DNA from: an uncultured bacterium
GTDB taxonomy: Bacteria; Patescibacteriota; Minisyncoccia; Phycocordibacterales; UBA9973
DNA length: 62,980 nt
Assembly (NCBI GenBank): GCA_903838985.1
Contig: CAIMAO010000014.1
Location: 1-62,980 of the forward strand
Direction of reading: 5' to 3'
The position numbers and the translations under genes are program-made. Positions within the stretch are counted from its first letter, which is position 1. Every line of letters begins with the position of its first letter. Shown here one piece after another: positions 3,787-59,581 of the stretch. The notes beneath the pieces are model-generated. The model worked only from the letters and a program-made list of their open reading frames with translations, searched no databases and was not told the origin of the DNA.

Positions 3787-5532
3787 ATGCAAATAAACGA
3801 AGAACAATTGAAAAAAGCAATTCTAGAAGCAAAGCTTGTCACACGTTCTGAACTTGATGATTCAATTAAAAAAGCTGAGAATAAAAAACAAAAGTTTGGG
3901 GATATTTTGTTGTCAGATGGTAAAATTTCTGAAACAGATTTAAAAAGAATGGAAGCATTTGTTTTAGAAATTCCATTTATTAGTTTAGTTGATAAAAAAA
4001 TTAATTTTGATATTCTTTCTCTCATTCCTGAACCGATAGCAAGGAATCACAACATAATAGCTTATAAAAAAAGTGAAGCAGGTTTAGAAATAGCTATGCT
4101 CGACGTAGATGACCTTCCGATGATTGATTTTATTAAGAAACGTTCCGGAGAAAAAATTCTTCCAAGACTTACAGACACTGCTTCTATCAAATTTGCTCTT
4201 GTTCAATATAGAAAAAGTTTGCAAGCGGACTTTGATAATATAATTCAAAAAGAAACATTATCTATTTCTAAAGAAGGAGATGAAACAGAAAAAACAGAAG
4301 AAGAATTGAAAGCCTTAGCTGAGGATTTGCCAGTTATTAAAATTGTGGACTCATTAGTTTTTCACGCAATTCTACAAAATGCTTCTGACATACATATTGA
4401 GCCAGGGGAAAAGGAATTAATCGTCAGATACAGAATAGATGGAATACTTCATGATGCCATGGTGCTCGACAAAAATGCTGCACCAGGAATAACGACTCGT
4501 GTGAAAGTTTTGTCTAACCTAAAATTAGATGAAAAGAGATTACCTCAAGATGGAAGATTTAAAATAGATCAAAATGGTGAAAAAGTTTCTTTCCGTGTTT
4601 CAACATTGCCGACATTTTTTGGTGAGAAAGTAGTGATAAGAATATTGAAAGAAAATGCACATGGTTTTACTTTGGAAGACTTAGGTTTTCATGGAGAGGG
4701 ATTAGAAAGGATTCATGATTCTCTAAAACAAAAAGTGGGTATGGTGCTTGCGACAGGTCCGACTGGTTCTGGAAAAACTACGACACTTTATACAATGCTT
4801 GAACTTTTAAATAGACCGGAAGTTAACATTTCTACCGTTGAAGACCCTATTGAATATCAGATCTCTAGAGTAAATCAAACACAAGTCAAACCAGAGATTG
4901 GTTTTACTTTTGCAAATGGTCTTCGTTCTCTTCTTCGCCAAGATCCAGATATAGTAATGGTGGGAGAAATTCGTGATGTTGAAACAGCTGGATTGGCCAT
5001 AAATGCTTCTCTTACCGGACACCTTGTATTGTCCACTATTCACACCAACTCTGCTTCTGGGGCAATTCCACGCCTTATAGATATGGGTGTATTGCCTTTC
5101 TTAATAATTTCGACGGTCAAAACCATACTTGCCCAGAGACTCGTGCGTAAGCTCGTTTCAAGTAAAGAAAAGTATACTTTGTCAAAAGAAGAAATAAAAA
5201 ATCTAGGTAAACTTGTTGATTTAGATCGCATGCTTTTAATGTTGAAAAGTGAAAAAATAATTGGACCAAAAGATAATTGGGAGACAATTCATTTTTATAA
5301 ACCAGTTGCCAATAATGAATCTGCTGACGGATATTCTGGACGTATAGGGATACATGAAGTTTTGAAAGTCACTTCTTCTATAAAAGAATTGATTCTTCGT
5401 GGAGCTTCTCAGGATGACATAGAAGCACAAGCAAAGAAAGAGGGTATGATGACAATTTTAGAAGATGGAGTTTTCCAAGCAGCTTTAGGAATGACAAGCT
5501 TAGAAGAAGTATTTCGTGTTGTTTCTGAATAA
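3787..5532 (+). CDS. pilB: Type IV pilus / type II secretion assembly ATPase (PilB/GspE family)
   Basis: 581 aa. Walker A GPTGSGKTTTLY, VGEIRD and LSTIHTN boxes typical of GspE/PilB hexameric ATPases. N-terminal T2SSE_N-like region. Confidence 0.9.
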   Translation: MQINEEQLKKAILEAKLVTRSELDDSIKKAENKKQKFGDILLSDGKISETDLKRMEAFVLEIPFISLVDKKINFDILSLIPEPIARNHNIIAYKKSEAGLEIAMLDVDDLPMIDFIKKRSGEKILPRLTDTASIKFALVQYRKSLQADFDNIIQKETLSISKEGDETEKTEEELKALAEDLPVIKIVDSLVFHAILQNASDIHIEPGEKELIVRYRIDGILHDAMVLDKNAAPGITTRVKVLSNLKLDEKRLPQDGRFKIDQNGEKVSFRVSTLPTFFGEKVVIRILKENAHGFTLEDLGFHGEGLERIHDSLKQKVGMVLATGPTGSGKTTTLYTMLELLNRPEVNISTVEDPIEYQISRVNQTQVKPEIGFTFANGLRSLLRQDPDIVMVGEIRDVETAGLAINASLTGHLVLSTIHTNSASGAIPRLIDMGVLPFLIISTVKTILAQRLVRKLVSSKEKYTLSKEEIKNLGKLVDLDRMLLMLKSEKIIGPKDNWETIHFYKPVANNESADGYSGRIGIHEVLKVTSSIKELILRGASQDDIEAQAKKEGMMTILEDGVFQAALGMTSLEEVFRVVSE

Positions 5533-48144: not shown

Positions 48145-51100
48145 ATGAGTAAATTATTAAAATCAAAATTTCTTCTTGGTTTAATGATGGTTTTAGCTTT
48201 TGCTGTTCTTGCAAGTTCAGCTGATGCAGCTATCACAAAGACCTTGAAGTATGGTTCAAAGAACGCACAAGTAAAAGAACTTCAACAGAAGCTTGGCGTT
48301 TCTGCAACAGGTTACTTTGGTACTCTTACCAAGGCAGCAGTTGTAAAATACCAAAAGGCAAATAATCTTAAAGCCGACGGAGTAGTTGGTCCAAAGACTT
48401 ACGTATTAGTAAATGCAATAGCTGACGGTACAGTTCCTCCAGTAGATGGTGGTACAGTTCCTCCAGTAACAACTGGTCCTGTATCAGTATCTCTTGCAAC
48501 TGACAATCCAGCTGCAGGAACAGTACTTTCCGGACAAGCAGGAGCAGATCTTGCACACTTCACATTCACAGGAACAGGAGTAGTTAGCTCTGTAACTTTG
48601 ACTCGTGGTGGTGTTTCAAATCAAAGTACTCTTTCAAATGTTTATCTATATGACGGTGCAACTCGCTTAACAGATGGATACACATTTAACAATACAAGTA
48701 CTCTTACAATAAATAATCTTAACCTTGTAGTTAGTGGAACAAAAACAATAGCTGTTAAAGCTGATGTTGCTGTTGCTGATTACAGTGTTTCAGTTATCCT
48801 TTCATCATATACAGTTGGTTCAACAGTAACTGCTGCTTCTGTAAAAGGTAATGAAATGTTTATTGCTAGTGGTTCAGGCCTTCTAGGTACAGCTGCTCTT
48901 ACAGTAGCCTCACCTTCTCCTGCTGCTGCAACAATAAACGCTGGTTCAATGAATCAAAGTTTGTGGACAAATACATTGAGTATTGGTTTACATACTTCAA
49001 ATCTTTACGGAATGACTGTTAAGATGATTGGTTCAGCTCCTTCAAATACTCTTGCTAATGTTGGCTTGTATCTTGATGGTGTTAAAGTTTCAAGTGCTTC
49101 AGTAAATTCAAATAGTCAATACGTATTTGATTTGTCAGGAGCTCCAGTTTCATTGACAACTGGTTCACATCAACTCGAAGTTCGTGGGGATGTTGTTGCA
49201 GGTGCATACAGAAACTTCTATCTATCTCTTGAAAAATCTTCTGATCTTATGATTAAAGATGGTCAAGTACAAGGTGGTATGATTGCTTTGACTCCAACAT
49301 ACAGTGGAGTAGCAGTAAGTAATATGCTTGGTGGTTTGGTTACTATCAACAATGGTACTCTTACTATCAATCAAGACCCTTCATTTAGCAGTACTACTAC
49401 ATTAGTTGGTGGTGCTACTGGTGTTAAGATGGCAGCATATAAATTTACAGCTTACGGTGAAGATGTAAAGGTTAATAGTCTTTCATTTACTCCTTCAATA
49501 AATCTTACCGCACCAGCTACTCCAGATTCTCTTATTAATGTAGGTTTGTATGTAAACGGTGGTCAAGTTGGTTCAAACCAAACAGCAGTTGATGGAACAG
49601 CATTAAACTTTAGTAGTTTAGGCTCTAACTTGATTGTTTCAGCAGGAAGTTCTGTTATTGTAGAAATAAAAGGTGACGTTATAAATGGAAGTAGTATTAC
49701 CGCAACAGCAGGTACAGTCAAATTTGACTTAGCTTCTGGTTCAAGTAATGCTCAAGGTGTAACTTCAGGTCAATTGACTTCAACAGCTTCAGCCGGTGGT
49801 CAATCACTAACAGTTTCATCAACAAACGTTACTTTTGCTCAAACATCAGGATGGGCAGCTTCTTCAATTGCTCCTAATAAATCAGGTGTAAAAGTTGGTA
49901 CATTTACAGTATCAACTGGATCAGCTGAAGGTATCACATTGAATAATATTCTTGTAGGTATCACAGGAACAATGATTGATCATAATCAAATTACAAACAT
50001 CACTCTTAAAGATGGAAATACTGTATTAGGTACTCCTATTGGAAATCCAACAGCATCAAATAACTTCTCAGTTACTTTGCCTGTTGCAATTTCTTCTTCA
50101 AAGACAATTGATGTTTATGCTGATATAGGATCAAGTGCTGCTACTTACACAGTTATTCCAGCAATGACAGTAACATACCGTGGTGCTACTTCAAATGTAA
50201 CAACTACATCAAGTCCAGTAACTGGTTCTACAATCACAGCTAACGTTGCAAGTATCGTTGCTGGTGGGGTAACATTCGTTCCTTCATCATCAATGGTTGC
50301 TCAATTCTTGGTTGGTGGTCAGTCATCAGTATCAATTGGTACATTTAACGTTAAAGCAAATACATTAGTTGGTGGTGCTGTAATCAAAGACGTAACAGTC
50401 ACTGTTCCAGCTAATACTATTGGTTCTGTAACATTAAATGGTGTAACAGGACAAGTAAATGGTACAACAGCTACACTTTACAACGTAGGTCTTACAGTAC
50501 CAGCAGATGCTTCTGGAATTAACGTTCCTATGACAGTATCACTAGTATGTGTAAGTGCTGCAGGAGGTGGATGTGCAGGAGTTTCTTATTCAGATCTTAC
50601 TGCTCAAATCACAACCTTAACTTACTTTGATGGTTCAGTTACACAATCAATCTCACCTACAGCAATCACTGCTACTCATAAATTAGTTGCTTCAAAACCA
50701 ACAATCAGTATGAGTACATCAAGTGGTTCAGGATTTGTGACTGGAAATCAACAAATTGGTACATTCACAGTAGCAGCTGACGCTGCTGGTGATATTAAGG
50801 TTCAAGCTATACCAGTTGTAATTTCTATCTCAGGTGCTGCTACAATCACTGCAGGAACAGTAGAACTTCGTGATTCAACAGGTAACACAGTTCTTGTTGG
50901 AACAGGTGGTGTAAACGGTTCTGCAGGATTAGATGGTTCTGGAACATTTGCTTTCAATACTTCAGCAAGAACTATTGCAAAGGGAACTTCAGAAACATAC
51001 ACAGTCTGGGCAACATTTGCAGGTGTGACAGGTGGTTCAAACACAATGAATGAATCATTCTCACTAGGTGCTAAGGCTTCATTCCTATGGACTGATGTCA

Positions 51101-51174
51101 TCGGCGCTCATGCAAGTGCTACTGGTGCATTGTTAAATACATACCCAACATCAACTCAAACAAAGTCTAACTAG
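48145..51174 (+). CDS. Candidate S-layer/cell-wall-anchored surface protein (signal peptide, peptidoglycan-binding domain, ~900-aa Thr/Ser/Gly/Val-rich beta region)
   Basis: Signal peptide ending ASSADA. PG_binding_1-like LKYGSKNAQVKELQQKLG...DGVVGPKT. Repetitive beta-rich remainder. Visibly less AT-rich than neighbouring genes. Confidence 0.55.
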   Translation: MSKLLKSKFLLGLMMVLAFAVLASSADAAITKTLKYGSKNAQVKELQQKLGVSATGYFGTLTKAAVVKYQKANNLKADGVVGPKTYVLVNAIADGTVPPVDGGTVPPVTTGPVSVSLATDNPAAGTVLSGQAGADLAHFTFTGTGVVSSVTLTRGGVSNQSTLSNVYLYDGATRLTDGYTFNNTSTLTINNLNLVVSGTKTIAVKADVAVADYSVSVILSSYTVGSTVTAASVKGNEMFIASGSGLLGTAALTVASPSPAAATINAGSMNQSLWTNTLSIGLHTSNLYGMTVKMIGSAPSNTLANVGLYLDGVKVSSASVNSNSQYVFDLSGAPVSLTTGSHQLEVRGDVVAGAYRNFYLSLEKSSDLMIKDGQVQGGMIALTPTYSGVAVSNMLGGLVTINNGTLTINQDPSFSSTTTLVGGATGVKMAAYKFTAYGEDVKVNSLSFTPSINLTAPATPDSLINVGLYVNGGQVGSNQTAVDGTALNFSSLGSNLIVSAGSSVIVEIKGDVINGSSITATAGTVKFDLASGSSNAQGVTSGQLTSTASAGGQSLTVSSTNVTFAQTSGWAASSIAPNKSGVKVGTFTVSTGSAEGITLNNILVGITGTMIDHNQITNITLKDGNTVLGTPIGNPTASNNFSVTLPVAISSSKTIDVYADIGSSAATYTVIPAMTVTYRGATSNVTTTSSPVTGSTITANVASIVAGGVTFVPSSSMVAQFLVGGQSSVSIGTFNVKANTLVGGAVIKDVTVTVPANTIGSVTLNGVTGQVNGTTATLYNVGLTVPADASGINVPMTVSLVCVSAAGGGCAGVSYSDLTAQITTLTYFDGSVTQSISPTAITATHKLVASKPTISMSTSSGSGFVTGNQQIGTFTVAADAAGDIKVQAIPVVISISGAATITAGTVELRDSTGNTVLVGTGGVNGSAGLDGSGTFAFNTSARTIAKGTSETYTVWATFAGVTGGSNTMNESFSLGAKASFLWTDVIGAHASATGALLNTYPTSTQTKSN

Positions 51175-51197
51175 TTTGAATTGTTAAGGATATAAGA

Positions 51198-51285
51198 GTT
51201 TCTCAAAACTTAAAATTGAAAGTCTGATTGACTAAATCAATTCCAAAAACCCCGATCGCAATTTAAAGCGACGGGGTTTTTGCGT
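51198..51285 (+). repeat. 88-nt cassette-boundary repeat, copy R1 (palindrome plus intrinsic terminator)
   Basis: gtttctcaaaacttaaaattgaaagtctgattgactaaatcaattccaaaaaccccgatcgcaatttaaagcgacggggtttttgcgt. Starts 23 nt after the surface-protein stop. Confidence 0.9.
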
Positions 51286-51320
51286 TGGTTGGTTAAAATT
51301 TTTATGTTAAAATTATAATA

Positions 51321-51927
51321 ATGAAAAATAAACGTTACGCTTTTATAGACGTTCAAAATACTGAAAGCACCACTCGTCAACTTCTTGGTTTTTTAATTGA
51401 TTGGAAAAAGCTTTTTTTATTTCTTAAAAATGAATGGAAATGTGAAAAAGTTTTTTTTCTATTCTGGAATAGATGTTGGAGATATAGAAACTGAAAAAGA
51501 ATTTGAGAATCTTTCCAATGGAGGTTGTATTGTTTGTTCTAAAATTGTTTTTTCTTATAAAAACAAAAATAAAAACATTCAAACAAAATGTCCAAGTTGT
51601 GGTAATGAATTTATTGAAGTAGTTGATATGGGATATAACAGAAAATCAAATTGTGATGTTGATTTGACTGTTGATGCGATGGAAAACGCTAGTCCAAACA
51701 CTGAGTTTTATCTTTTTTCAGGTGATGGAGATTTTGAATATTTAATAAAAAAAGTGATAGAAAAAGGTGTATTTGTTCATATAGTATCAAGTGCGAAAAA
51801 AATAAAAAATGGACCCAATTATTCAACTTCTAGATTTTCCACAAAATTACGTAAACTTACTGAAGAAAAAGGTAAGCCCGTTGATTTTCTTAATATAGAT
51901 AATTTGAAGTTTAAAATTAAAAAATAG
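51321..51927 (+). pseudogene. NYN/LabA-like domain protein with Zn-ribbon insert, interrupted by a +1 frameshift in a T8 tract
   Basis: Frame 1 (51321-51458) encodes MKNKRYAFIDVQN...CEKVFF. The track ORF continues as FYSGIDVG...CDVDLTVDA...LFSGDGDFEYL in the +1 frame. The frames join at ttttttt(t) 51451-51458. Confidence 0.6.
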
Positions 51928-51962: not shown

Positions 51963-52013
51963 ATGACAATTAAAGTATAACAAAACGTATTTTCTTGTCA
52001 AGCATTTTGTAGA

Positions 52014-52101
52014 GTTTCTCAAAACTTAAAATTGAAAACCTGATTGACTCAATCAATTCCAAAAACCCCGATCGCAATTTAAAGCGACGGGGTTTTTGCA
52101 T
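52014..52101 (+). repeat. 88-nt cassette-boundary repeat, copy R2
   Basis: Near-identical to R1, R3 and R4 (a few substitutions by manual alignment). Confidence 0.9.
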
Positions 52102-52129
52102 TTTTATCTCACCCCATAATTGATAGGGC

Positions 52130-52156
52130 AGCCCCCTACACCAGGTGTAGGGGGCT
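52130..52156. repeat. REP-like palindrome P1 (agccccctacacc-a-ggtgtagggggct)
   Basis: Perfect 13-bp arms. Lies 18 nt upstream of the RayT-like ATG. Contains GTAG/CTAC. Confidence 0.9.
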
Positions 52157-52173
52157 ATGTTATAATAATAAAT

Positions 52174-52875
52174 ATGACATACAGAAAAGTTTCTTTATCG
52201 TCTGGAGAATATTTTCATATTTTTAATAGGGGGAACAGTAAACAGAAAATTTTTCTTGATGAAAAAGACAGAGAGCGTTTTGTAAAACTTTTGTATTTAT
52301 CTAACTCGAAGAAGAGCGTTAATTTCCGTGATGATATTGTAAGTCAGAAAATTGACGCTTTTGATTTTGATAGGGGAGAAACTCTTGTTTCGATTGGTGC
52401 TTGGGTCTTGATGCCAAATCATTTTCATATATATTTAACGTCCCCTACACCAGGTGTAGGGGACGAAGAGATGAAGAGAAACGAGGAAAATAAATCTAAT
52501 ATTACATTATTTGTACATAAACTTTGTATGAGTTATGTAAAATATTTTAATAAAAAATATGACAGGACTGGTGCGCTTTTTGAAGGACCTTTTAAATCTG
52601 TTCATATAGAAAATGATGGCCAAGCGAAATATCTTTTCTCGTATATACACTTAAATCCTTTGAAACTTATTGATCCAAATTGGAAAGAAAATATTAATAA
52701 AAATATTGATATCACTTTAAAATATTTAGATAATTACAATTGGAGTAGTTATAATGATTATTATGGAATTTTAAGAAAAGAAAATAAAATTTTACAACGA
52801 AAAGATTTTCCAGATTATTTTTCTGATATTAAAAGTTTTAAATCAGAAATTTTTTCTTGGTTAAAATATGAGTAG
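52174..52875 (+). CDS. IS200-like Y1 (HUH) transposase of the RayT/COG1943 type
   Basis: YFHIFNRGN, WVLMPNHFHIYL (HUH), KYFNKKYDRTGALFEGPFKS, YLFSYIHLNPLK (catalytic Tyr region), and NWSSYNDY. Start set at MTYRKVSL. Confidence 0.7.
   Translation: MTYRKVSLSSGEYFHIFNRGNSKQKIFLDEKDRERFVKLLYLSNSKKSVNFRDDIVSQKIDAFDFDRGETLVSIGAWVLMPNHFHIYLTSPTPGVGDEEMKRNEENKSNITLFVHKLCMSYVKYFNKKYDRTGALFEGPFKSVHIENDGQAKYLFSYIHLNPLKLIDPNWKENINKNIDITLKYLDNYNWSSYNDYYGILRKENKILQRKDFPDYFSDIKSFKSEIFSWLKYE
52441..52463. repeat. REP-like palindrome P2, in-frame inside the transposase gene
   Basis: tcccctacacc-a-ggtgtagggga is translated as SPTPGVG directly after the HUH motif. Confidence 0.9.
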
Positions 52876-52883
52876 TTTAATTT

Positions 52884-52908
52884 TTCCCCTACACCAGGTG
52901 TAGGGGAA
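52884..52908. repeat. REP-like palindrome P3
   Basis: ttcccctacacc-a-ggtgtaggggaa, 9 nt after the transposase stop. Confidence 0.9.
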
Positions 52909-52963
52909 AGTCGTTTTGTTTTGCAATTTGCGGTTTTTATTTTGCTTGTGGTATTATAAAAGT

Positions 52964-53224
52964 ATGAAAAAAGTTGTGAAAAAAACATCTGATAAATTTC
53001 TTACGGAAACTAAGTTTGAAAAGAGTATGCAATCTGTTGCAAAATCTTTTGCAGACCAGGCTGATGTTATGCAAATGATGCTTAAAGAAATCAAGACAAT
53101 TCATCAAGATAATAGATATTTTAAGGAAAATATTGTTAGTTTAAACAGTGATGGTTTGTCTTATGATAAGAAAATTGAAAATCTAACTATTAGAATAGAA
53201 AAACTAGAGCTTAAAGTAAGTTAG
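52964..53224 (+). CDS. Small coiled-coil protein, function unknown
   Basis: 86-aa ORF starting MKKVVKKTSDKF, 6 nt after an extended -10 (TGgTATTAT). The longer track ORF start lies in the promoter module. Confidence 0.35.
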   Translation: MKKVVKKTSDKFLTETKFEKSMQSVAKSFADQADVMQMMLKEIKTIHQDNRYFKENIVSLNSDGLSYDKKIENLTIRIEKLELKVS

Positions 53225-53233
53225 TTAACTAAA

Positions 53234-53321
53234 GTTTCTCAAAACTTAAAATTGAAAGTCTGATTGACTCAATCAATTCCAAAAACCCCGATCGCAATTT
53301 AAAGCGACGGGGTTTTTGCGT
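53234..53321 (+). repeat. 88-nt cassette-boundary repeat, copy R3
   Basis: Starts 9 nt after the preceding stop codon. Palindrome tgattga-c-tcaatca plus terminator ccccgatcgc-aatttaaa-gcgacggggttttt. Confidence 0.9.
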
Positions 53322-53351
53322 TTCCTCCCGCTCCATATCGATATTGATAGT

Positions 53352-53382
53352 GCAGCCCCCTACACCAGGTGTAGGGGGCTGC
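53352..53382. repeat. REP-like palindrome P4 (perfect 15-bp arms)
   Basis: gcagccccctacacc-a-ggtgtagggggctgc. Preceded by attgatagtg, as P1 is by attgataggg. Confidence 0.9.
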
Positions 53383-53433
53383 TTTGTCCTGAAGTTTGCA
53401 ATTTTTATTTTGCTTGTGGTATGCTTAAGGTAT

Positions 53434-53721
53434 ATGAAAAAGGCAACATTTCAAATTGGTTTACCAATAACAATATTTAAAGAAGGGAAAAGCTATGTAG
53501 CATATAGTCCGGCTCTTGATCTTTCTACTTCTGCCTCTACATATTTAAAGGCAAGAAGTCGTTTTTCAGAAGTAACCAAAATATTTTTTGAAGAACTTAC
53601 AGAAATGGGCACCTTAGAATCTGTGCTTGCTAGTTTGGGTTGGCAAAAATTAAAAACAAATTGGCATCCACCAGTTGTTGTTTCAAACTATACACAATCT
53701 ATAAATTTAACAAATGCCTAA
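53434..53721 (+). CDS. hicB: HicB-like antitoxin (UPF0150-type N-domain)
   Basis: IFKEGKSYVAYSPALDLSTSASTYLKA pattern. Overlaps the downstream hicA-like gene by 8 nt. Start set at MKKATFQIG. Confidence 0.6.
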   Translation: MKKATFQIGLPITIFKEGKSYVAYSPALDLSTSASTYLKARSRFSEVTKIFFEELTEMGTLESVLASLGWQKLKTNWHPPVVVSNYTQSINLTNA

Positions 53722-53944
53722 AAAGCAAAATATAACTAATAAACAGTTTCAAAAATTTCTGGTATATTTAGGTTGTACTTTAAAACGTTCTCATGGAGAC
53801 CACTTTGTTTATATTCGTTCAGGTTTAATTCGTCCAATTATTATACCGAAAGATAGTCCCTTGCCACAGTTTATTATTAGAAACAATTTAAGATTGCTTG
53901 GTTTAACATGGGAAGAATTTTTTGATATTTTAAATAAATTGTAA
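53714..53944 (+). CDS. hicA: HicA-like mRNA interferase toxin
   Basis: 76 aa. KFLVYLGCTLKRSHGDHFVYI...IIIPKDSPLPQFIIRNNLRLLGLTWEEF fits the HicA/YcfA pattern. Confidence 0.65.
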   Translation: MPKKQNITNKQFQKFLVYLGCTLKRSHGDHFVYIRSGLIRPIIIPKDSPLPQFIIRNNLRLLGLTWEEFFDILNKL

Positions 53945-53960
53945 TCACAGCTTATTATTT

Positions 53961-54182
53961 ATGAATACAAAATATGATAAAATTGCAGATGCACTTTATG
54001 TTAAATTTAAGCAAGGTAAAATTGCCAAGACTCTTCGTCTTGAGAATCATCTAATAGTTGATTTAGATAATAAGTCAAATATTTTGGGAGTAGAACTTCT
54101 CAACGCTAAATCTCAACTTGCACCAGCATTTATAAAACAATTTTTTGGAAAAGATATCGTTAAACAAATTGCTTTTGCTTAA
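53961..54182 (+). CDS. DUF2283-family small protein
   Basis: YDKIADALYVKF...IVDLDNKSNILGVELLNA matches the DUF2283 pattern as I recall it. Confidence 0.6.
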   Translation: MNTKYDKIADALYVKFKQGKIAKTLRLENHLIVDLDNKSNILGVELLNAKSQLAPAFIKQFFGKDIVKQIAFA

Positions 54183-54187
54183 GTATA

Positions 54188-54276
54188 GTTTCTCAAAACT
54201 CAAAATTGAAAGCCTGATTGACTCAATCAATTCCAAAAACCCCGATCGCAATTTAAAGCGATGGGGTTTTTTGCGT
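54188..54276 (+). repeat. 88-nt cassette-boundary repeat, copy R4
   Basis: Starts 5 nt after the DUF2283 stop. Four differences from R3, including one extra T. Confidence 0.9.
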
Positions 54277-54302
54277 TTTTATCTGTATGATATAATAAAA
54301 TT

Positions 54303-54506
54303 ATGGAAAAAGATTTTGACGAATGGAATAATTTAAAGAAAACAACCAATAACTTGGATATTAAAATAAAAATTCGTGTAGGCGAAATTCGTTGGTAAGG
54401 TAGAATTCTTGATAAAAAAAGGCTTGAAGAGAAATTATTTGAAATATCAGAAGCAGAACTTGAAGAAATAAAGAAATCTTACTGTAAGCTTATAATGTCA
54501 AATTAA
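54303..54506 (+). pseudogene. Remnant of a PemK/MazF-like toxin gene (internal deletion plus in-frame TAA)
   Basis: MEKDFDEWNNLKK...IRVGEIRW-stop (TAA 54396) continues in the same frame as GRILDKKRLEEKLFEISEAELEEIKKSY. The central SH3-like barrel is missing. TATAAT lies 6 nt before the ATG. Confidence 0.4.
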
Positions 54507-54689: not shown

Positions 54690-55184
54690 ATGGAAAATAA
54701 AGATAGTAAGGAAATGATGAAATATGTTAACTATGCGATAGGGGCAATAGTGATTATTTTAATCGTTGTTTTGGTGGTTTTAAAGGTCCGAAGTTCTAAA
54801 GAAGCAGCTTTGAATGAGGTTGCTCCAGTGGTTGTAGACACTACAAAGGCCACAGAAGACACAAGCAAAGGCAGTGTGAACTCTGGCAGTAAAGCAAAGC
54901 CTATGAGCTATGCTGATGCTTTAATAAAGTATGCTGATAAGAGAATTCAGCTTGATAAAGATTGTCAGGCTTTCCCAAACAATGTCACTTATAAAGACAA
55001 TACAGGCATAATGATAGATAATCGTGCACCTGTAGCTCGTACAGTAAAAATAGGCACAGAATATTCTGTCAAAGCTTATGGTTTCAAGATTATTGTTTTA
55101 CCTGATACATATCTAAAATCAAAAACTATTTTAGTTGATTGTGACAAATCTCAAAACGTAGCAACTATCCTAGTACAGGAATAA
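54690..55184 (+). CDS. Membrane-anchored protein, function unknown
   Basis: 164-aa ORF with a single TM helix AIGAIVIILIVVLVVL. Confidence 0.4.
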   Translation: MENKDSKEMMKYVNYAIGAIVIILIVVLVVLKVRSSKEAALNEVAPVVVDTTKATEDTSKGSVNSGSKAKPMSYADALIKYADKRIQLDKDCQAFPNNVTYKDNTGIMIDNRAPVARTVKIGTEYSVKAYGFKIIVLPDTYLKSKTILVDCDKSQNVATILVQE

Positions 55185-55205
55185 AAAAATAATTATTGTT
55201 TTTTC

Positions 55206-55240
55206 AAAAAGTGGAGAACTGAAAAAGTTTTCCACTTTTT
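55206..55240 (+). terminator. Intrinsic terminator
   Basis: aaaaagtgga...tccacttttt (10 bp) followed by tttttgtttt. Confidence 0.65.
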
Positions 55241-55243
55241 GTT

Positions 55244-55273
55244 TTGACAATTTCATTGTTTGGATAATATAAT
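55244..55273 (+). promoter_or_regulatory. Consensus promoter TTGACA-18 nt-TATAAT
   Basis: TTGACA at 55244-55249 and TATAAT at 55268-55273. The ATG at 55283 is 9 nt downstream. Confidence 0.6.
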
Positions 55274-55282
55274 TTATTCAAT

Positions 55283-55927
55283 ATGGAAAAAATAAAAAAA
55301 ATATTGGCTCACAAGATTTTTAAAATAATTAAGTGGGTTTTTTTAATTTTACTCGGATTGTTTATTATTTTGATAATCGGTCGTGTGATCTATCGCAACA
55401 ATGAAGAAAAGACCAATGAACAAGTAATAAAAATTCACAATACCAAACTCACGCTAGATGATGTAATGGGTAAAAATCTTCCGCCAGATCCGAGAGCCCT
55501 CGCTGATAAGACCGTGCAGGGGATTGATGCAAATAAAAATGGCATTCGTGATGACGTTGAGCTTGCAGTCTTTAAGGAATATCCAAATTCTGCCAAAACT
55601 CGCGCTGTGCTTTTGCAGTATGCACTAGCATTGCAGATGGAGGTTGTACAGCCGATGGTGAACACAACGACAGCAACAGAAATAGTTCGTGAGCAAGATA
55701 GGGCTGGTTATTGTGTCAGTGATACTCTTGTGCCCAGAAAAAGTTCTGAAGATTCAAGAAGCAATGCAGATATGGAAAAAATAAATGGTTTTATTAATTT
55801 TGTTGAGAATAAGCAATTTAATAATAAAGAACGTAAAGAAATGAATAATACTTTTTTGAAGAATCTAAGAAGTTACTCAGATTTAGATAAAATTTGTGAT
55901 GTAGATTATAGTAAATTATTAAATTAA
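55283..55927 (+). CDS. Membrane-anchored protein with an EF-hand/dockerin-like Ca-binding loop, function unknown
   Basis: TM helix WVFLILLGLFIILIIG. The loop DANKNGIRDDVE fits D-x-N-x-N-G-x-x-D-x-x-E. Confidence 0.4.
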   Translation: MEKIKKILAHKIFKIIKWVFLILLGLFIILIIGRVIYRNNEEKTNEQVIKIHNTKLTLDDVMGKNLPPDPRALADKTVQGIDANKNGIRDDVELAVFKEYPNSAKTRAVLLQYALALQMEVVQPMVNTTTATEIVREQDRAGYCVSDTLVPRKSSEDSRSNADMEKINGFINFVENKQFNNKERKEMNNTFLKNLRSYSDLDKICDVDYSKLLN

Positions 55928-55948
55928 AGGTTAATTTAAAATATTTAT

Positions 55949-58900
55949 ATGAAGAATAAGATATTGTTTATTTTTATTCTAATTTGTTTGTTTTCTATTT
56001 GCGTTAAGGTTTCAGCAAATGAAATATGTTCTCCAACAGGGTATAGTGTTGTTACGGTCAATGGTATATTTACTGATGAAAAGGGGGCGAAATATAATAA
56101 AAATCAATTATCTTATAAACTTGCGGCAACCTATAATAATGAACCGATAAACATTGATTATCTGTACAACCAAACCCACCTTCTCGGTGTTGGGGATTTG
56201 ATTGATGCTGTAAATCAAGGACTTTTTGACCAAAAATCTGATTATGATTTGGTGGAAATGATAAATGATGCAAGTCAAAAAGTTAAAACCCAAAAACTTT
56301 TACTCGTTTCTCATTCACAGGGTAATTTTTACGCAAATAATTTTTATGACAAAGTAGCAGATCAACAAGGTGGTGTTCCTTCTAAATCTATTGGAGTTTA
56401 TAGTGTTGCTTCTCCAGCAAATCGTGTTGCTGGCGGAGGAAAATATCTAACTTCAGATACAGATAAAGTCATAGCTTCTGTGGTGGGTCGTTTCATCAAA
56501 ATTTTACCACCAAATATTCATATACCTTTGCAAGAAGCCGATGGTAATGGGCATAGTTTTTCAGATGTTTATTTAAAATATCAAAGTGATAGGATTATTT
56601 CTGATATAAAATCTTCTCTTAATAATTTAAAAGAAAATGATGAACAAGAGGCAGATCAGCCTTGTATTTCTGCACCAGAATTGACAATAAATCATAAAAT
56701 ACAAGGTGTTTTATTGAATTCTGCAGATTTTGTAATAAACAATACAAAAAGTGCGACAGTGTATGCCGCAAATACTTTATATAATACGACGCTAGCTGTG
56801 GGTAATGTTGTGAAAGGTTTACTAGCCACAGCTGTAGAAAGTTTACCAAATACTAAAAGTGTGACTACGTTGCCTGTTGTTGTCCCAGAAAATAAAAATA
56901 CAAATGTTGCAAACCAAAATATTCCAAAAGAAACGACAAAAGTTGTTGATAAAAATATAATTAAAGAAACAAAAAATACTGAAACAACCAAGGTAGTAAA
57001 AGTTGCTGATGTTTCTCCAGTTTTAGACAAAAAAGATGTTTTGAGCAACGTCATAAAACCCGTTGTTTCTAATGTTGTTTCTTTTGGAGGCGGTGGAGGT
57101 GGGGGGAGTGTCGTCGTCGTTCAGCCAGAAGAAAAACCAGTAATAAAAGATGAAAAGAAAGATGATCCAGTAGTGCCACCACCAGTAGAACCTGTTCCAG
57201 ATGTCACTTCACCGGTCATTACTATTTTAGGGAATAACCCAGAAGTAGCAATTACAAATTCTGTTTATGTTGATGCTGGAGCTACTGCCCTCGATGCTGT
57301 AGATGGTGTGCGTGAGGTGGAGAGTACTGGCACTGTTGATACATCTAGAAGAGGAAGTTATATCATTATATATAAAGCTTCAGATAAGTCTGGAAATATT
57401 GCGACAGCTACTCGTACGGTGAATGTTGCAACTTATAAATATGTTCCTAAATATAAATTTGGCCTAGATAATGGTGATGGTAATTATTGGCAGAATTGGG
57501 CATTTAATGGATCAAATGTTTATGATTGGGCTGACAGTTATGTAGATAATTATTTACATGAACAATTTAAAATTCAAACTTATGCTGGAGGTTTTTGGTG
57601 TTCGCAATGTTTACAGCGTGGTGTTTTTAAACATAATCCTCAAGAAGGTTTTGAAAGATCAGATCTCTTAACTTCTGGTCTTGAAAATAATCCACAAAAT
57701 AATGAAATTGATATGATTTACAATGTTGTTATTCAATGGGATTCTGCTGGTTATACTTATAAAATTACAAATGGTGATAATGTTTATGCGACAGGACGCA
57801 CAGATGTTGCGAATTTAAATAAAGATATGTGGGTCGGTTGGGATGGTTCCTTTAATGATTTTAAGAATTTTCCTGCAGGAAATTGGACGGGTTCTTCTGG
57901 TTGGTACCCATTTGGTCTCACAGGCGGGGGAAGTATGATTTTGCAACCATTTCCAATTTATAAAGAGCCTACCTCTGCAAGTCCTTCACTTTCTCTTATA
58001 AATAAAGGTGTATATGCAGGAGTAGGTGTGACGCCGACATATGGTAGGACGAATTTAACAGCATTTAATTTTCAAGTAATTTATACAGATAAAAATAATA
58101 TTGCACCACAAAATGTAAAACTTCATGTTGTTAACACAGTTACAGGGTTTTCTTTTCCAGAAGTTTCGATGACAAAGATATCTCAGGGCGGGGATGTTTT
58201 AAGTGATGGAAATTTTGCAAACGGAGAAATATATACTGCAAATAATATTTTGTATGACACAGGAATTTATAAATATTATTTTACCGCAAATGATGGTTCT
58301 GGAAATTTGGTAGAAATGCCTTACAACGAAAGATTAAATTTTGGTGTTGTGCCTTCCACTTACACTTATATTCCTCAATATTCTTTTGGGACAGAAAATG
58401 GAGATGGAAATAATTGGCAAGTTTGGTCTTTTAATGGATCAAATGTCTATGATTGGTCAGACACGTATGTTGATAATTATTTGCATGAACAATTTAAACT
58501 TCAAGATTATCCTGGGGGATTTTGGTGCTCGCAATGTTTACAAAGAGGTATATTTAATCACGATCCACAAAAAGGTTTTGAAACTTATGATCTTCTCACG
58601 TCTAATCTGGAACACAATCCACAGAATAATATGATTGCCGTTACTTATGATGTATCTTTGCAATGGGACGCAACTGGTTATACATATACTATTTCTCATG
58701 ATGCTACTGTTGATGCCACTGGCCATACAGATGTTGCAAACGTGAATGAAAATATGTGGGTTGGCTGGGATGGATCGTTTAATAATTTTAAAACTTTTCC
58801 TTCTGGACGTTGGCAAGGTGCTTCGGGCTGGTATCCGTTTGGTTATACAGGTGGGGATAGTATGATTTTGAAACCTTATCCAGTTTATGTTTATTCTGGC

Positions 58901-59581
58901 CCCATTCTTAGTAAACAAAAGTCTGTTACTTCTTTTAATTTTATGAATTTAGTTCCAGAAGTTGACGGAGTTCTTGATGAAAATAATCATACTATTTCTA
59001 TGACTGTTTCATTTGGGACAGATGTGAAAACTCTTGTGCCGACTATTGGAATTTCTCTAAGTGCGTCTGTTGTTCCAAATAATAATGTTGTTCAAGATTT
59101 TACTAATCCTGTCACTTACACCGTTACAGCAGAAAATGGTTCTATACAAAATTATATTGTGACAGTAAATGTTGCTCCAGATCCAAACCCAGTACCTGCA
59201 CCAGTTCCTGATCCCGTTCCAGCTCCAGATGTTACTCCGCCTTCTATTACAAGTTATACACTTAATGGTGTTGCTGATAATGTGACAATAAATCCAGCTA
59301 AAACACCTGTTTCTGTTGTTTTAAATTCTAGTGAAAATGTAAATTGGATGTCTATAAAAATTGAAAATCAGAATGATATAGGAATTTACAAAACATTTCT
59401 GTCTGGAAATGGTTGTGTTGATGGTACGAATACTTGCAGTAAAACTTGGGATGGGGCTTTGACTAAGGGAGATATTCAAAATGGTGCTTATCATATTAAA
59501 GTTCACATGAAAGATCCAGCAAATAATGAATTTAATGATTATATTCTCCCTTATGTAATAAATGTAGACACTTCTATTTAA
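55949..59581 (+). CDS. Giant secreted protein (1210 aa): lipase-like alpha/beta-hydrolase head, Pro-rich linkers, Ig-like segments, duplicated ~190-aa Trp/Cys-rich module
   Basis: Signal peptide. LLLVSHSQGNFY nucleophile elbow. PVITILGNNPE...DAVDGV Ig-like segment. Tandem modules begin near nt 57431 and 58358 (NGDGN.WQ.W.FNGSNVYDW.D.YVDNYLHEQFK...GGFWCSQCLQRG). Confidence 0.5.
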   Translation: MKNKILFIFILICLFSICVKVSANEICSPTGYSVVTVNGIFTDEKGAKYNKNQLSYKLAATYNNEPINIDYLYNQTHLLGVGDLIDAVNQGLFDQKSDYDLVEMINDASQKVKTQKLLLVSHSQGNFYANNFYDKVADQQGGVPSKSIGVYSVASPANRVAGGGKYLTSDTDKVIASVVGRFIKILPPNIHIPLQEADGNGHSFSDVYLKYQSDRIISDIKSSLNNLKENDEQEADQPCISAPELTINHKIQGVLLNSADFVINNTKSATVYAANTLYNTTLAVGNVVKGLLATAVESLPNTKSVTTLPVVVPENKNTNVANQNIPKETTKVVDKNIIKETKNTETTKVVKVADVSPVLDKKDVLSNVIKPVVSNVVSFGGGGGGGSVVVVQPEEKPVIKDEKKDDPVVPPPVEPVPDVTSPVITILGNNPEVAITNSVYVDAGATALDAVDGVREVESTGTVDTSRRGSYIIIYKASDKSGNIATATRTVNVATYKYVPKYKFGLDNGDGNYWQNWAFNGSNVYDWADSYVDNYLHEQFKIQTYAGGFWCSQCLQRGVFKHNPQEGFERSDLLTSGLENNPQNNEIDMIYNVVIQWDSAGYTYKITNGDNVYATGRTDVANLNKDMWVGWDGSFNDFKNFPAGNWTGSSGWYPFGLTGGGSMILQPFPIYKEPTSASPSLSLINKGVYAGVGVTPTYGRTNLTAFNFQVIYTDKNNIAPQNVKLHVVNTVTGFSFPEVSMTKISQGGDVLSDGNFANGEIYTANNILYDTGIYKYYFTANDGSGNLVEMPYNERLNFGVVPSTYTYIPQYSFGTENGDGNNWQVWSFNGSNVYDWSDTYVDNYLHEQFKLQDYPGGFWCSQCLQRGIFNHDPQKGFETYDLLTSNLEHNPQNNMIAVTYDVSLQWDATGYTYTISHDATVDATGHTDVANVNENMWVGWDGSFNNFKTFPSGRWQGASGWYPFGYTGGDSMILKPYPVYVYSGPILSKQKSVTSFNFMNLVPEVDGVLDENNHTISMTVSFGTDVKTLVPTIGISLSASVVPNNNVVQDFTNPVTYTVTAENGSIQNYIVTVNVAPDPNPVPAPVPDPVPAPDVTPPSITSYTLNGVADNVTINPAKTPVSVVLNSSENVNWMSIKIENQNDIGIYKTFLSGNGCVDGTNTCSKTWDGALTKGDIQNGAYHIKVHMKDPANNEFNDYILPYVINVDTSI

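Follow-up and report, generated by a model that had tools for sequence, protein, structure and literature searches.

In the REPtron of Escherichia coli, a Y1/HUH enzyme (TnpAREP, or RayT) is encoded by a gene flanked by its cognate hairpin, the repetitive extragenic palindromic (REP) sequence or bacterial interspersed mosaic element (BIME) (Corneloup et al., 2021, PMC8266576). In-frame REPs inside the tnpAREP genes themselves have already been reported for TnpAY1 subclass 2.4 of the REP-associated tyrosine transposases (RAYTs), which corresponds to RAYT group 4 (Quentin, Siguier, Chandler & Fichant, 2018, PMC6006769). Subclass 2.1 (RAYT group 1, or TIRYTs) has been described as the most insertion sequence (IS)-like RAYT group (Di Nocera et al., 2013, PMC3733652; Bertels et al., 2017, PMC5581495). 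We found no paper on RAYTs or REPs in the candidate phyla radiation (CPR, or Patescibacteria) in the literature searched. Here we analyze a Y1/HUH gene from a Patescibacterial contig (CAIMAO010000014.1, assembly GCA_903838985.1); the whole stretch analyzed, hereafter the window, is 62,980 nt long, and the region studied, positions 52130-53382, carries four copies of one perfect palindrome before, inside and after the gene. A first-pass annotation had called this arrangement REPtron-like and, as far as its author was aware, uncharacterized in CPR-like genomes. We interpret it, with a probability of roughly 65%, as a REPtron-like module belonging to a large Patescibacteria-specific clade of class-2 Y1/HUH endonucleases related to TnpAREP and the RAYTs, and the module is apparently undescribed in CPR bacteria, in agreement with the earlier statement. 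The features of the locus are as follows.

52130-52156, no strand: P1, upstream palindrome copy with 13-bp perfect arms and centre A at 52143, at the -35 position of the gene's predicted promoter
52158-52166, plus strand: extended -10-like box TGTTATAAT, ending 7 nt before the ATG; consensus match only
52174-52875, plus strand: Y1/HUH gene (TnpAY1 class 2, RAYT-like) of 233 aa, with HUH at 52420-52428, the Tyr157 codon at 52642-52644 and a C-terminal helical tail with WSSY
52439-52465, no strand: P2, in-frame intragenic palindrome copy with 13-bp perfect arms, encoding SPTPGVGD
52883-52909, no strand: P3, downstream palindrome copy with 13-bp perfect arms, which also scores as intrinsic-terminator-like
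52915-52972, plus strand: promoter-like segment with TGGTATTAT, after P3, leading into an 86-aa open reading frame (ORF) at 52964-53224; paralogous to 53383-53440
53352-53382, no strand: P4, solo palindrome copy 450 bp downstream with 15-bp perfect arms, which also scores as terminator-like

Four copies of a perfect palindrome at a Y1/HUH gene

The 19-mer CCCTACACCAGGTGTAGGG occurs exactly four times in the window, at 52134, 52443, 52887 and 53358, and zero copies are expected in shuffled windows, so the four copies reported in the first-pass annotation are real. The stem of P1 ends 17 nt and its core 20 nt before the ATG at 52174, and the core of P3 begins 10 nt past the stop codon at 52873-52875; the distances given earlier (18 nt upstream and 9 nt downstream of the gene) were off by only 1-2 nt. 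All four copies fold as single-stranded DNA hairpins on either strand, with free energies of -12 to -18 kcal/mol and z-scores of -4.4 to -7.8, and no Rfam family matches the hairpins. The 15-bp perfect arms of P4 and the upstream context that it has in common with P1 had both been seen before and are correct: the left flank ATTGATAGNGCAG is present at P1 (52119-52131) and at P4 (53343-53355). The right flank of P4 (53383-53440) is in turn 78% identical over 58 nt to that of P3 (52915-52972). This combination of a P1-type left flank with a P3-type right flank gives P4 the appearance of an unoccupied or resolved site. A comparable TTTTGTTTTG...TGGTATAAT context is found 3' of a palindrome copy at one related locus (L004), and about 15 homologous loci carry additional palindrome copies nearby. 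The sequence of the locus is 100% identical in an independent assembly (L215) and is also present in contigs from four lake-water metagenome runs, which excludes an assembly artefact.

The hairpin co-varies at three positions across homologous loci

We compared 80 homologous loci of Paceibacteria and Nomurabacteria drawn from one-genome-per-species contigs; the set consists of loci and not of whole genomes. A perfect in-frame palindrome with arms of 7-15 bp and a centre of 1-3 nt directly follows the NHFH[IL]Y motif in 63 of the 76 loci in which internal palindromes were counted. The protein segment after HUH varies accordingly among the homologues (SPTPGVGD, SPKSDLG, SHMSDMW, SPRPGLGL and NAEARLPQ, among others), and each of these versions resembles a translated palindrome. 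The internal palindromes have 43 distinct cores, with a mean GC content of 59% compared to 37% for the loci.

At 60 loci, we searched the 160 nt upstream of the ATG and the surroundings of the stop codon for the core of the internal palindrome, allowing one mismatch. The results show that a locus's own core recurs upstream of the ATG at 55 loci, around the stop codon at 49, and at both flanks as well as inside at 46, while cores taken from other loci match in only 37 and 38 of 3,656 control comparisons (~1%). The geometry of this triad is fixed: in the median, the upstream core lies 26 nt before the ATG, the internal copy 273 nt after it, and the downstream copy 6 nt past the stop codon. As many as four kinds of Watson-Crick pair are seen at individual stem positions and G-T pairs are nearly absent; the changes by which the hairpin co-varies at its three sites are strictly Watson-Crick. 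The presence of the own core at all three sites, against a background of ~1% for foreign cores, indicates that the enzyme gene and its hairpin form a locus-specific pair. P1, P2 and P3 of the window are one instance of this family-wide triad, and P2 is no oddity of this particular gene.

The protein is nearest to TnpAREP

The ORF at 52174-52875 contains the motifs NHFHIYL (H83 and H85) and YIHLNP (Y157). Both had been named in the first-pass annotation, and in an alignment of 120 homologues HUH and YIHLNP with Tyr157 prove to be invariant. W190 and S192 of the WSSY tail are invariant as well, and S191 and Y193 are nearly so. An AlphaFold model made with the same 120 homologues has a predicted local distance difference test (pLDDT) score of 84; an earlier run on 24 sequences gave a pLDDT of 51 and was set aside. 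In the model, HUH lies on strand 83-89 (beta3) and the Tyr on helix 148-165, and the surface loop encoded by P2 is the sole low-confidence segment (residues 96-105), placed between strand 83-89 and helix alphaC (109-127). The top Foldseek match of the model in the PDB is 4ER8, E. coli TnpAREP bound to its REP hairpin, with E=1.3e-6 and a probability of 1.00, followed by 2XM3, 2EC2, 2A6M and 2VJV, that is, by ISDra2, IS608 and Sulfolobus Y1 transposases. Searches of the PDB sequences by phmmer and by profile yielded at best a marginal match to 4ER8. Judged from the model, the protein has a Y1/HUH fold with intact catalytic motifs, and it is nearest to TnpAREP (RayT) among the Y1/HUH enzymes.

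A single search recovered 4,224 protein clusters in the clade, and those that are named belong to Paceibacteria, Nomurabacteria and other Patescibacteria. Relatives encoded on plasmids are just 24-31% identical across the catalytic core (residues 11-164).

Comparison with described systems

The module resembles subclass 2.4 (PMC6006769) in that a tnpAREP-like gene is flanked by cognate palindromes, in its low copy number per genome and divergent paralogues, and in the in-frame hairpin located in the loop after the HUH strand, as seen here in P2 and at the 63 loci with an internal palindrome. Because in-frame REPs have been published for that subclass, the intragenic hairpin is not new in kind. 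The proteins differ, as far as can be compared by published motif signatures rather than by the authors' hidden Markov models: subclass 2.4 proteins have a median length of ~194 aa with WQ and YIxNNP (Table 1 of PMC6006769), whereas the protein here has 233 aa, FE (in LFEGPF), YIHLNP and the WSSY tail. The REPs of subclass 2.4 have GT[AG]G feet (canonical or 'double foot'), while the hairpins here are perfect, lack a guide tetranucleotide and are locus-specific in sequence. The hosts also differ, being mainly Cyanobacteria and Bacteroidetes in subclass 2.4 and Patescibacteria here.

By the same signatures, the protein is similar to subclass 2.1 (PMC3733652, PMC5581495), which has NH[YF]H, Y[IV]HLNP, a length of ~238 aa and a tail with an SS motif. 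However, subclass 2.1 has been reported either without REP-like sequences or with GGGGWSAS terminal inverted repeats, whereas the loci here have hairpins before, inside and after the gene, none of them with GGGGWSAS. We considered repeats of this TIRYT type for the window and rejected them, since the outer ends of the hairpins read 5'-(T)TCCCC.

The E. coli REPtron (4ER8; PMC8266576) provides the best structural match and the same combination of an HUH/Y1 enzyme with a gene-flanking cognate hairpin. The E. coli REPs require a 5' GTAG and a bulge in the stem, are cut at CT and are present in hundreds of copies; in contrast, the hairpins here have no GTAG foot, perfect stems and few copies, and the two proteins are only 16% identical. 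The IS200/IS605 elements (IS608, ISDra2) share the fold, have subterminal hairpins at both ends of a ~0.7-0.8 kb unit, and have a hairpin just upstream of tnpA. Their IS200-type transposases are ~150 aa long with a Y...Q motif, and the elements have multiple near-identical copies, guide tetranucleotides and no intragenic hairpin copy. Here, the motif is Y...NP, no foot sequence is conserved, and the best within-genome pair is 81% identical (among loci, not whole genomes). Short palindromic repeats that lie in-frame in protein genes are also known from Rickettsia palindromic elements (RPEs) and intragenic REPs, and in this respect these are like the SPTPGVGE inserts described below, but RPEs are ~100-150 bp long and have no dedicated transposase, whereas the palindromes here measure 21-31 bp and are linked to a Y1 gene.

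Turnover of the hairpins and boundaries of the module

Several observations bear on the turnover of the hairpins, and the three copies do not give the impression of one ancient insertion. One and the same palindrome can be translated in different frames depending on the paralogue: GCGGAAGCAAGGCTTCCGC encodes NAEARLPQ in one and RKQGFRK in another. The orientation of the central nucleotides flips between copies without a fixed pattern. At one locus (L068), a compensatory T>C/A>G double change is present in the upstream and downstream copies and absent from the internal copy. At least five loci without a perfect internal palindrome keep the flanking copies together with an internal copy that has 1-3 mismatches. 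These frame differences, loop flips, the change at L068 and the decayed copies point to ongoing copying or replacement between the sites, and they also indicate that the internal copy is usually, though not always, maintained. The double substitution in the flanking copies of L068 looks like a snapshot of concerted change.

Copies of the module in unrelated contexts have 80-85% nucleotide similarity, which is bounded by the upstream and downstream hairpins. Two paralogous modules from the same genome (DATKGV01), L068 (~3950-4740) and L082 (~3950-4735), are 81% identical, and here too the similarity is hairpin-bounded. With the flanking hairpins as its limits, this unit of similarity, roughly 780 bp long, forms a discrete module. 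Such boundaries also favor an autonomous IS200-like insertion sequence, in which P1 and P3 would be the subterminal left- and right-end hairpins of a ~780-bp element moving by single-strand 'peel and paste', P4 would be an empty or solo target site, and P2 would be a passenger. The size of the element and the positions of its hairpins are like those of IS200, several genomes hold 2-4 paralogues, and the combination of the P1 left flank with the P3 right flank at P4 is what an unoccupied site would be expected to have. However, the paralogues differ by ~20-40% and mostly have different hairpins, and no near-identical within-genome duplicates are found among the 80 loci, the best pair being the one at 81%. 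Synteny with housekeeping or surface-protein neighbours is also conserved in two groups of loci: at 12-20 loci, the gene has a large surface protein on one side and, on the other, the 214-aa and 1210-aa genes, both of which the window has too, and at 7-8 loci it is placed between lysS-greA-rpsU-ybeY and mraZ-rsmH. The conserved synteny and the lack of near-identical duplicates indicate mostly vertical inheritance, as for RAYTs. In addition, the Y...NP motif is that of class 2 and not the Y...Q of IS200 transposases (PMC6006769), there is no tnpB, and the hairpins spread alone as solo copies. We consider an autonomous IS200-like element rather unlikely on this evidence.

We examined the dispersal of the hairpins in one Nomurabacteria genome (two hit-bearing contigs, 464 kb), in which the cognate 23-mer has 11 exact copies. 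Four of these are at the gene and seven lie away from it, several of them inside ORFs, and dispersal in that genome is low-copy only. The palindrome of the window is found elsewhere, in genomes and metagenomes, as upstream-plus-internal pairs in homologues that are 68-73% identical, and it is also found as solo copies in other genomes and metagenomes. The palindrome census proposed earlier therefore gave a divided result, with no copy outside the locus in the window and solo copies elsewhere in related genomes. A scan of a genome collection with GCGGAAGCNNNGCTTCCGC was unspecific, returning chance sites in high-GC genomes, and was left out of this census.

Some of the solo copies lie within coding sequences. 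A 616-aa secreted protein has an in-frame SPTPGVGE insert, and the palindrome is perfectly conserved in a diverged orthologue. In another case, a methionyl-tRNA formyltransferase-like gene (fmt) takes its final residues and its stop codon from the window palindrome. The in-frame inserts of the window palindrome in other genes are located as follows.

L003, 3533-3553: in-frame insert in another gene
L223, 1925-1945: in-frame insert in another gene
L225, 4518-4538: in-frame insert in another gene
L218, 6920-6940: in-frame insert in another gene

The window palindrome is also seen in Nomurabacteria GW2011_GWB1_43_19 (L002, 1605-1625), ~300 nt upstream of a Y1 homologue that has a different internal palindrome, CCACATGTCTGACATGTGG. 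The presence of both types at this locus shows that a single neighbourhood can hold hairpins of more than one type.

Predicted promoter and terminator context of the hairpins

At 57 of 76 loci, 6-7 nt separate a -10-like hexamer from the ATG, compared to 9% of random positions. Of the 63 loci with such a hexamer 3-12 nt from the ATG, 30 have a TG extension. Because the box is so close to the ATG, the mRNA is predicted to be leaderless, which would leave the upstream hairpin untranscribed, at the -35 position. P1 would thus lie upstream of the transcription start and yet is identical to two transcribed copies, so a role shared by the copies would most simply be exerted at the DNA level. P3 and P4 lie ~50 nt upstream of the promoter-like segments of the next genes. 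None of the RNA runs searched for the Y1 gene holds it.

This context is an argument for regarding the palindromes as regulatory DNA or RNA elements (double-stranded operators or terminators) that insulate and autoregulate small genes and do not serve as transposition substrates. The Y1-like protein would then be a domesticated sequence-specific binder without strand transfer, perhaps acting via its C-terminal helical domain. P1 would occupy the -35 position of the predicted leaderless promoter, which is conserved, P3 and P4 are terminator-like and closely precede promoter-like segments, the palindromes are fully symmetric like dimer-binding operators, and the tails of subclass 2.1 resemble helix-turn-helix domains (PMC6006769). 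However, the invariance of HUH and Tyr, as read from the alignment, argues for retained catalysis. The complementarity also runs unbroken to a centre of 1-3 nt and the arms vary in length, as is usual for hairpins but not for half-site operators. An in-frame copy within the gene and in-frame solo copies in unrelated genes have no obvious role as operators, and loop flipping and concerted change imply copying. A purely regulatory function is unlikely in light of these features. A chance repeat or an assembly artefact, for which only the small copy number in the window (four) would speak, is practically negligible, as zero copies are expected in shuffles, independent assemblies and runs contain the identical sequence, and about 60 other loci have the same architecture.

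Proposed activity of the module

The explanation that we favor remains a REPtron-like module of a class-2 Y1/HUH endonuclease. By analogy with E. coli TnpAREP and the TnpA proteins of IS608 and ISDra2, a dimeric enzyme would bind its cognate hairpin on single-stranded DNA and would cut and rejoin the DNA beside the hairpin via a 5'-phosphotyrosine intermediate (PMC8266576). The hairpins would thereby be copied, replaced or flipped, mostly locally, and the three copies would be kept identical, with occasional seeding of solo copies or movement of the whole module. By binding at P1, the enzyme would in addition repress its own promoter, and P3 could act as a terminator. We infer the catalysis and the mobility of the module from these related enzymes.

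A number of results weigh against the REPtron-like module. The palindrome is restricted to 1.25 kb of the 63-kb window, where a fifth copy of CCCTACACCAGGTGTAGGG is not found even with 3 mismatches. Neither a conserved guide tetranucleotide at the hairpin foot nor a recognizable cleavage site is present among 139 extragenic copies, and no joints between palindromes are found in the assembled contigs of the four lake-water metagenome runs. The synteny conserved at 12-20 loci, described above, is a further such point, and perfect palindromes beside promoters could equally be double-stranded operators. On the side of the protein, the full-length sequence gives no match to Pfam Y1_Tnp (PF01797), and it falls short of the equivalog cut-off of NCBIfam NF047646 (REP_Tyr_transpos), scoring 36.7 bits compared to the required 80.

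The missing Pfam match is explained by the palindrome-encoded insert, which breaks it. Deletion of the 14 residues encoded by P2 and just after restores the match, at 25.1 bits compared to the gathering score of 23, and Y1_Tnp is matched by 15 of 24 homologues (E<0.01). The Pfam check suggested in the first-pass annotation is thus positive for the shortened protein and negative for the full-length one. The assignment to the RayT group holds in the sense that the protein is nearest to TnpAREP, by Foldseek and by its match to REP_Tyr_transpos (E=3.6e-9), but it is not a canonical RayT given its bit score. In a similar way, the REPtron-like arrangement stands with respect to the cognate palindrome before, inside and after the gene at 46 of 60 loci, while two traits of a canonical REPtron are not found. 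GTAG, which had been taken as the link to REPs, sits inside the 3' arm in the window and not at a 5' foot, GTAG/CTAC is contained in only 1 of the 43 family cores, and the extragenic copies have no foot tetranucleotide. High-copy dispersal is likewise not supported, as the 63-kb window has no copy beyond the locus and the related Nomurabacteria genome only 11 in 464 kb.

One low-depth metagenome contig (run X3) connects 52430 to 52543 and skips 112 nt, beginning 9 nt before P2. The shorter side of this joint is only 20 nt long, and the contig may represent a related strain or a misjoin.

A more far-reaching proposal is that the intragenic hairpin is a functional third site and not a tolerated passenger, and that the clade is a previously unrecognized Y1 subclass with dozens of enzyme-hairpin pairs. 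We regard this proposal as possible but doubtful. The enzyme might, for instance, target this third site for autoregulation or to limit itself, or the site might be a donor or acceptor in flip-flop copying that would keep the three copies identical.

The REPtron-like module would extend REPtron-type systems to Patescibacteria, whose tiny streamlined genomes are where selfish or domesticated repeats are least expected, and the motifs of the clade are nearest to those of a subclass thought to lack REPs. Since each locus has its own hairpin at three fixed positions, the family provides a natural set of at least 43 cognate protein-hairpin pairs. These pairs are material for studying how HUH enzymes read hairpin DNA and would be useful for HUH-tags and single-strand DNA tools. 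The conserved in-frame copy raises the question of self-targeting and concerted evolution, and the SPTPGVGE-type in-frame inserts in other genes show that such elements also reshape CPR proteins. The interest would be greater if the internal hairpin is functional or if a recognition code can be read from the pairs.

Neighbouring repeats and genes

The surroundings of the Y1 gene contain a second repeat, a 94-nt direct repeat with four copies of 91-96% identity (51194-51287, 52010-52103, 53230-53323 and 54184-54277). Three of the four copies begin within ~20 nt of the preceding stop codon. The repeat holds the palindrome TGATTGACTCAATCA and an A-tract/stem/T-tract hairpin resembling a bidirectional terminator. 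It matches no Rfam family and does not occur at the 80 homologous loci. In the lake metagenome contigs, it has 4-8x k-mer depth and extra flanking contexts, indicating that more copies exist elsewhere. The repeat separates small accessory gene cassettes. An R''/R' core-site pattern of the kind expected for an integron attC-like site was not seen by eye, and no integrase search was made.

An NYN-domain gene (51321-51927) upstream of the Y1 gene is apparently frameshifted, with an N-terminal piece at 51321-51494 that is not in the same frame as the main ORF at 51397-51927 (Pfam NYN, E=6e-12); in another assembly, only a 165-aa product is called for this gene. Downstream, a cluster of small genes of the toxin-antitoxin type (53434-54399) is present between copies of the 94-nt repeat. 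Its members are as follows.

53434-53721: HicB-like ORF
53714-53944: HicA, overlapping the HicB-like ORF (Pfam, 27.2 bits)
53961-54182: DUF2283
54304-54399: short ORF, by eye a candidate truncated PemK/MazF-like toxin N-terminus

We also compared the window (48145-51174 and 54690-59581) with the neighbourhood that is conserved in related genomes (L004), where Y1 is preceded by a surface protein and a 162-aa gene and followed by genes of 208 aa and 1065 aa. The window differs in having accessory cassettes inserted to either side of Y1 and a 164-aa gene located downstream of Y1 and not upstream. The Y1 site looks like a local hotspot for small insertions.

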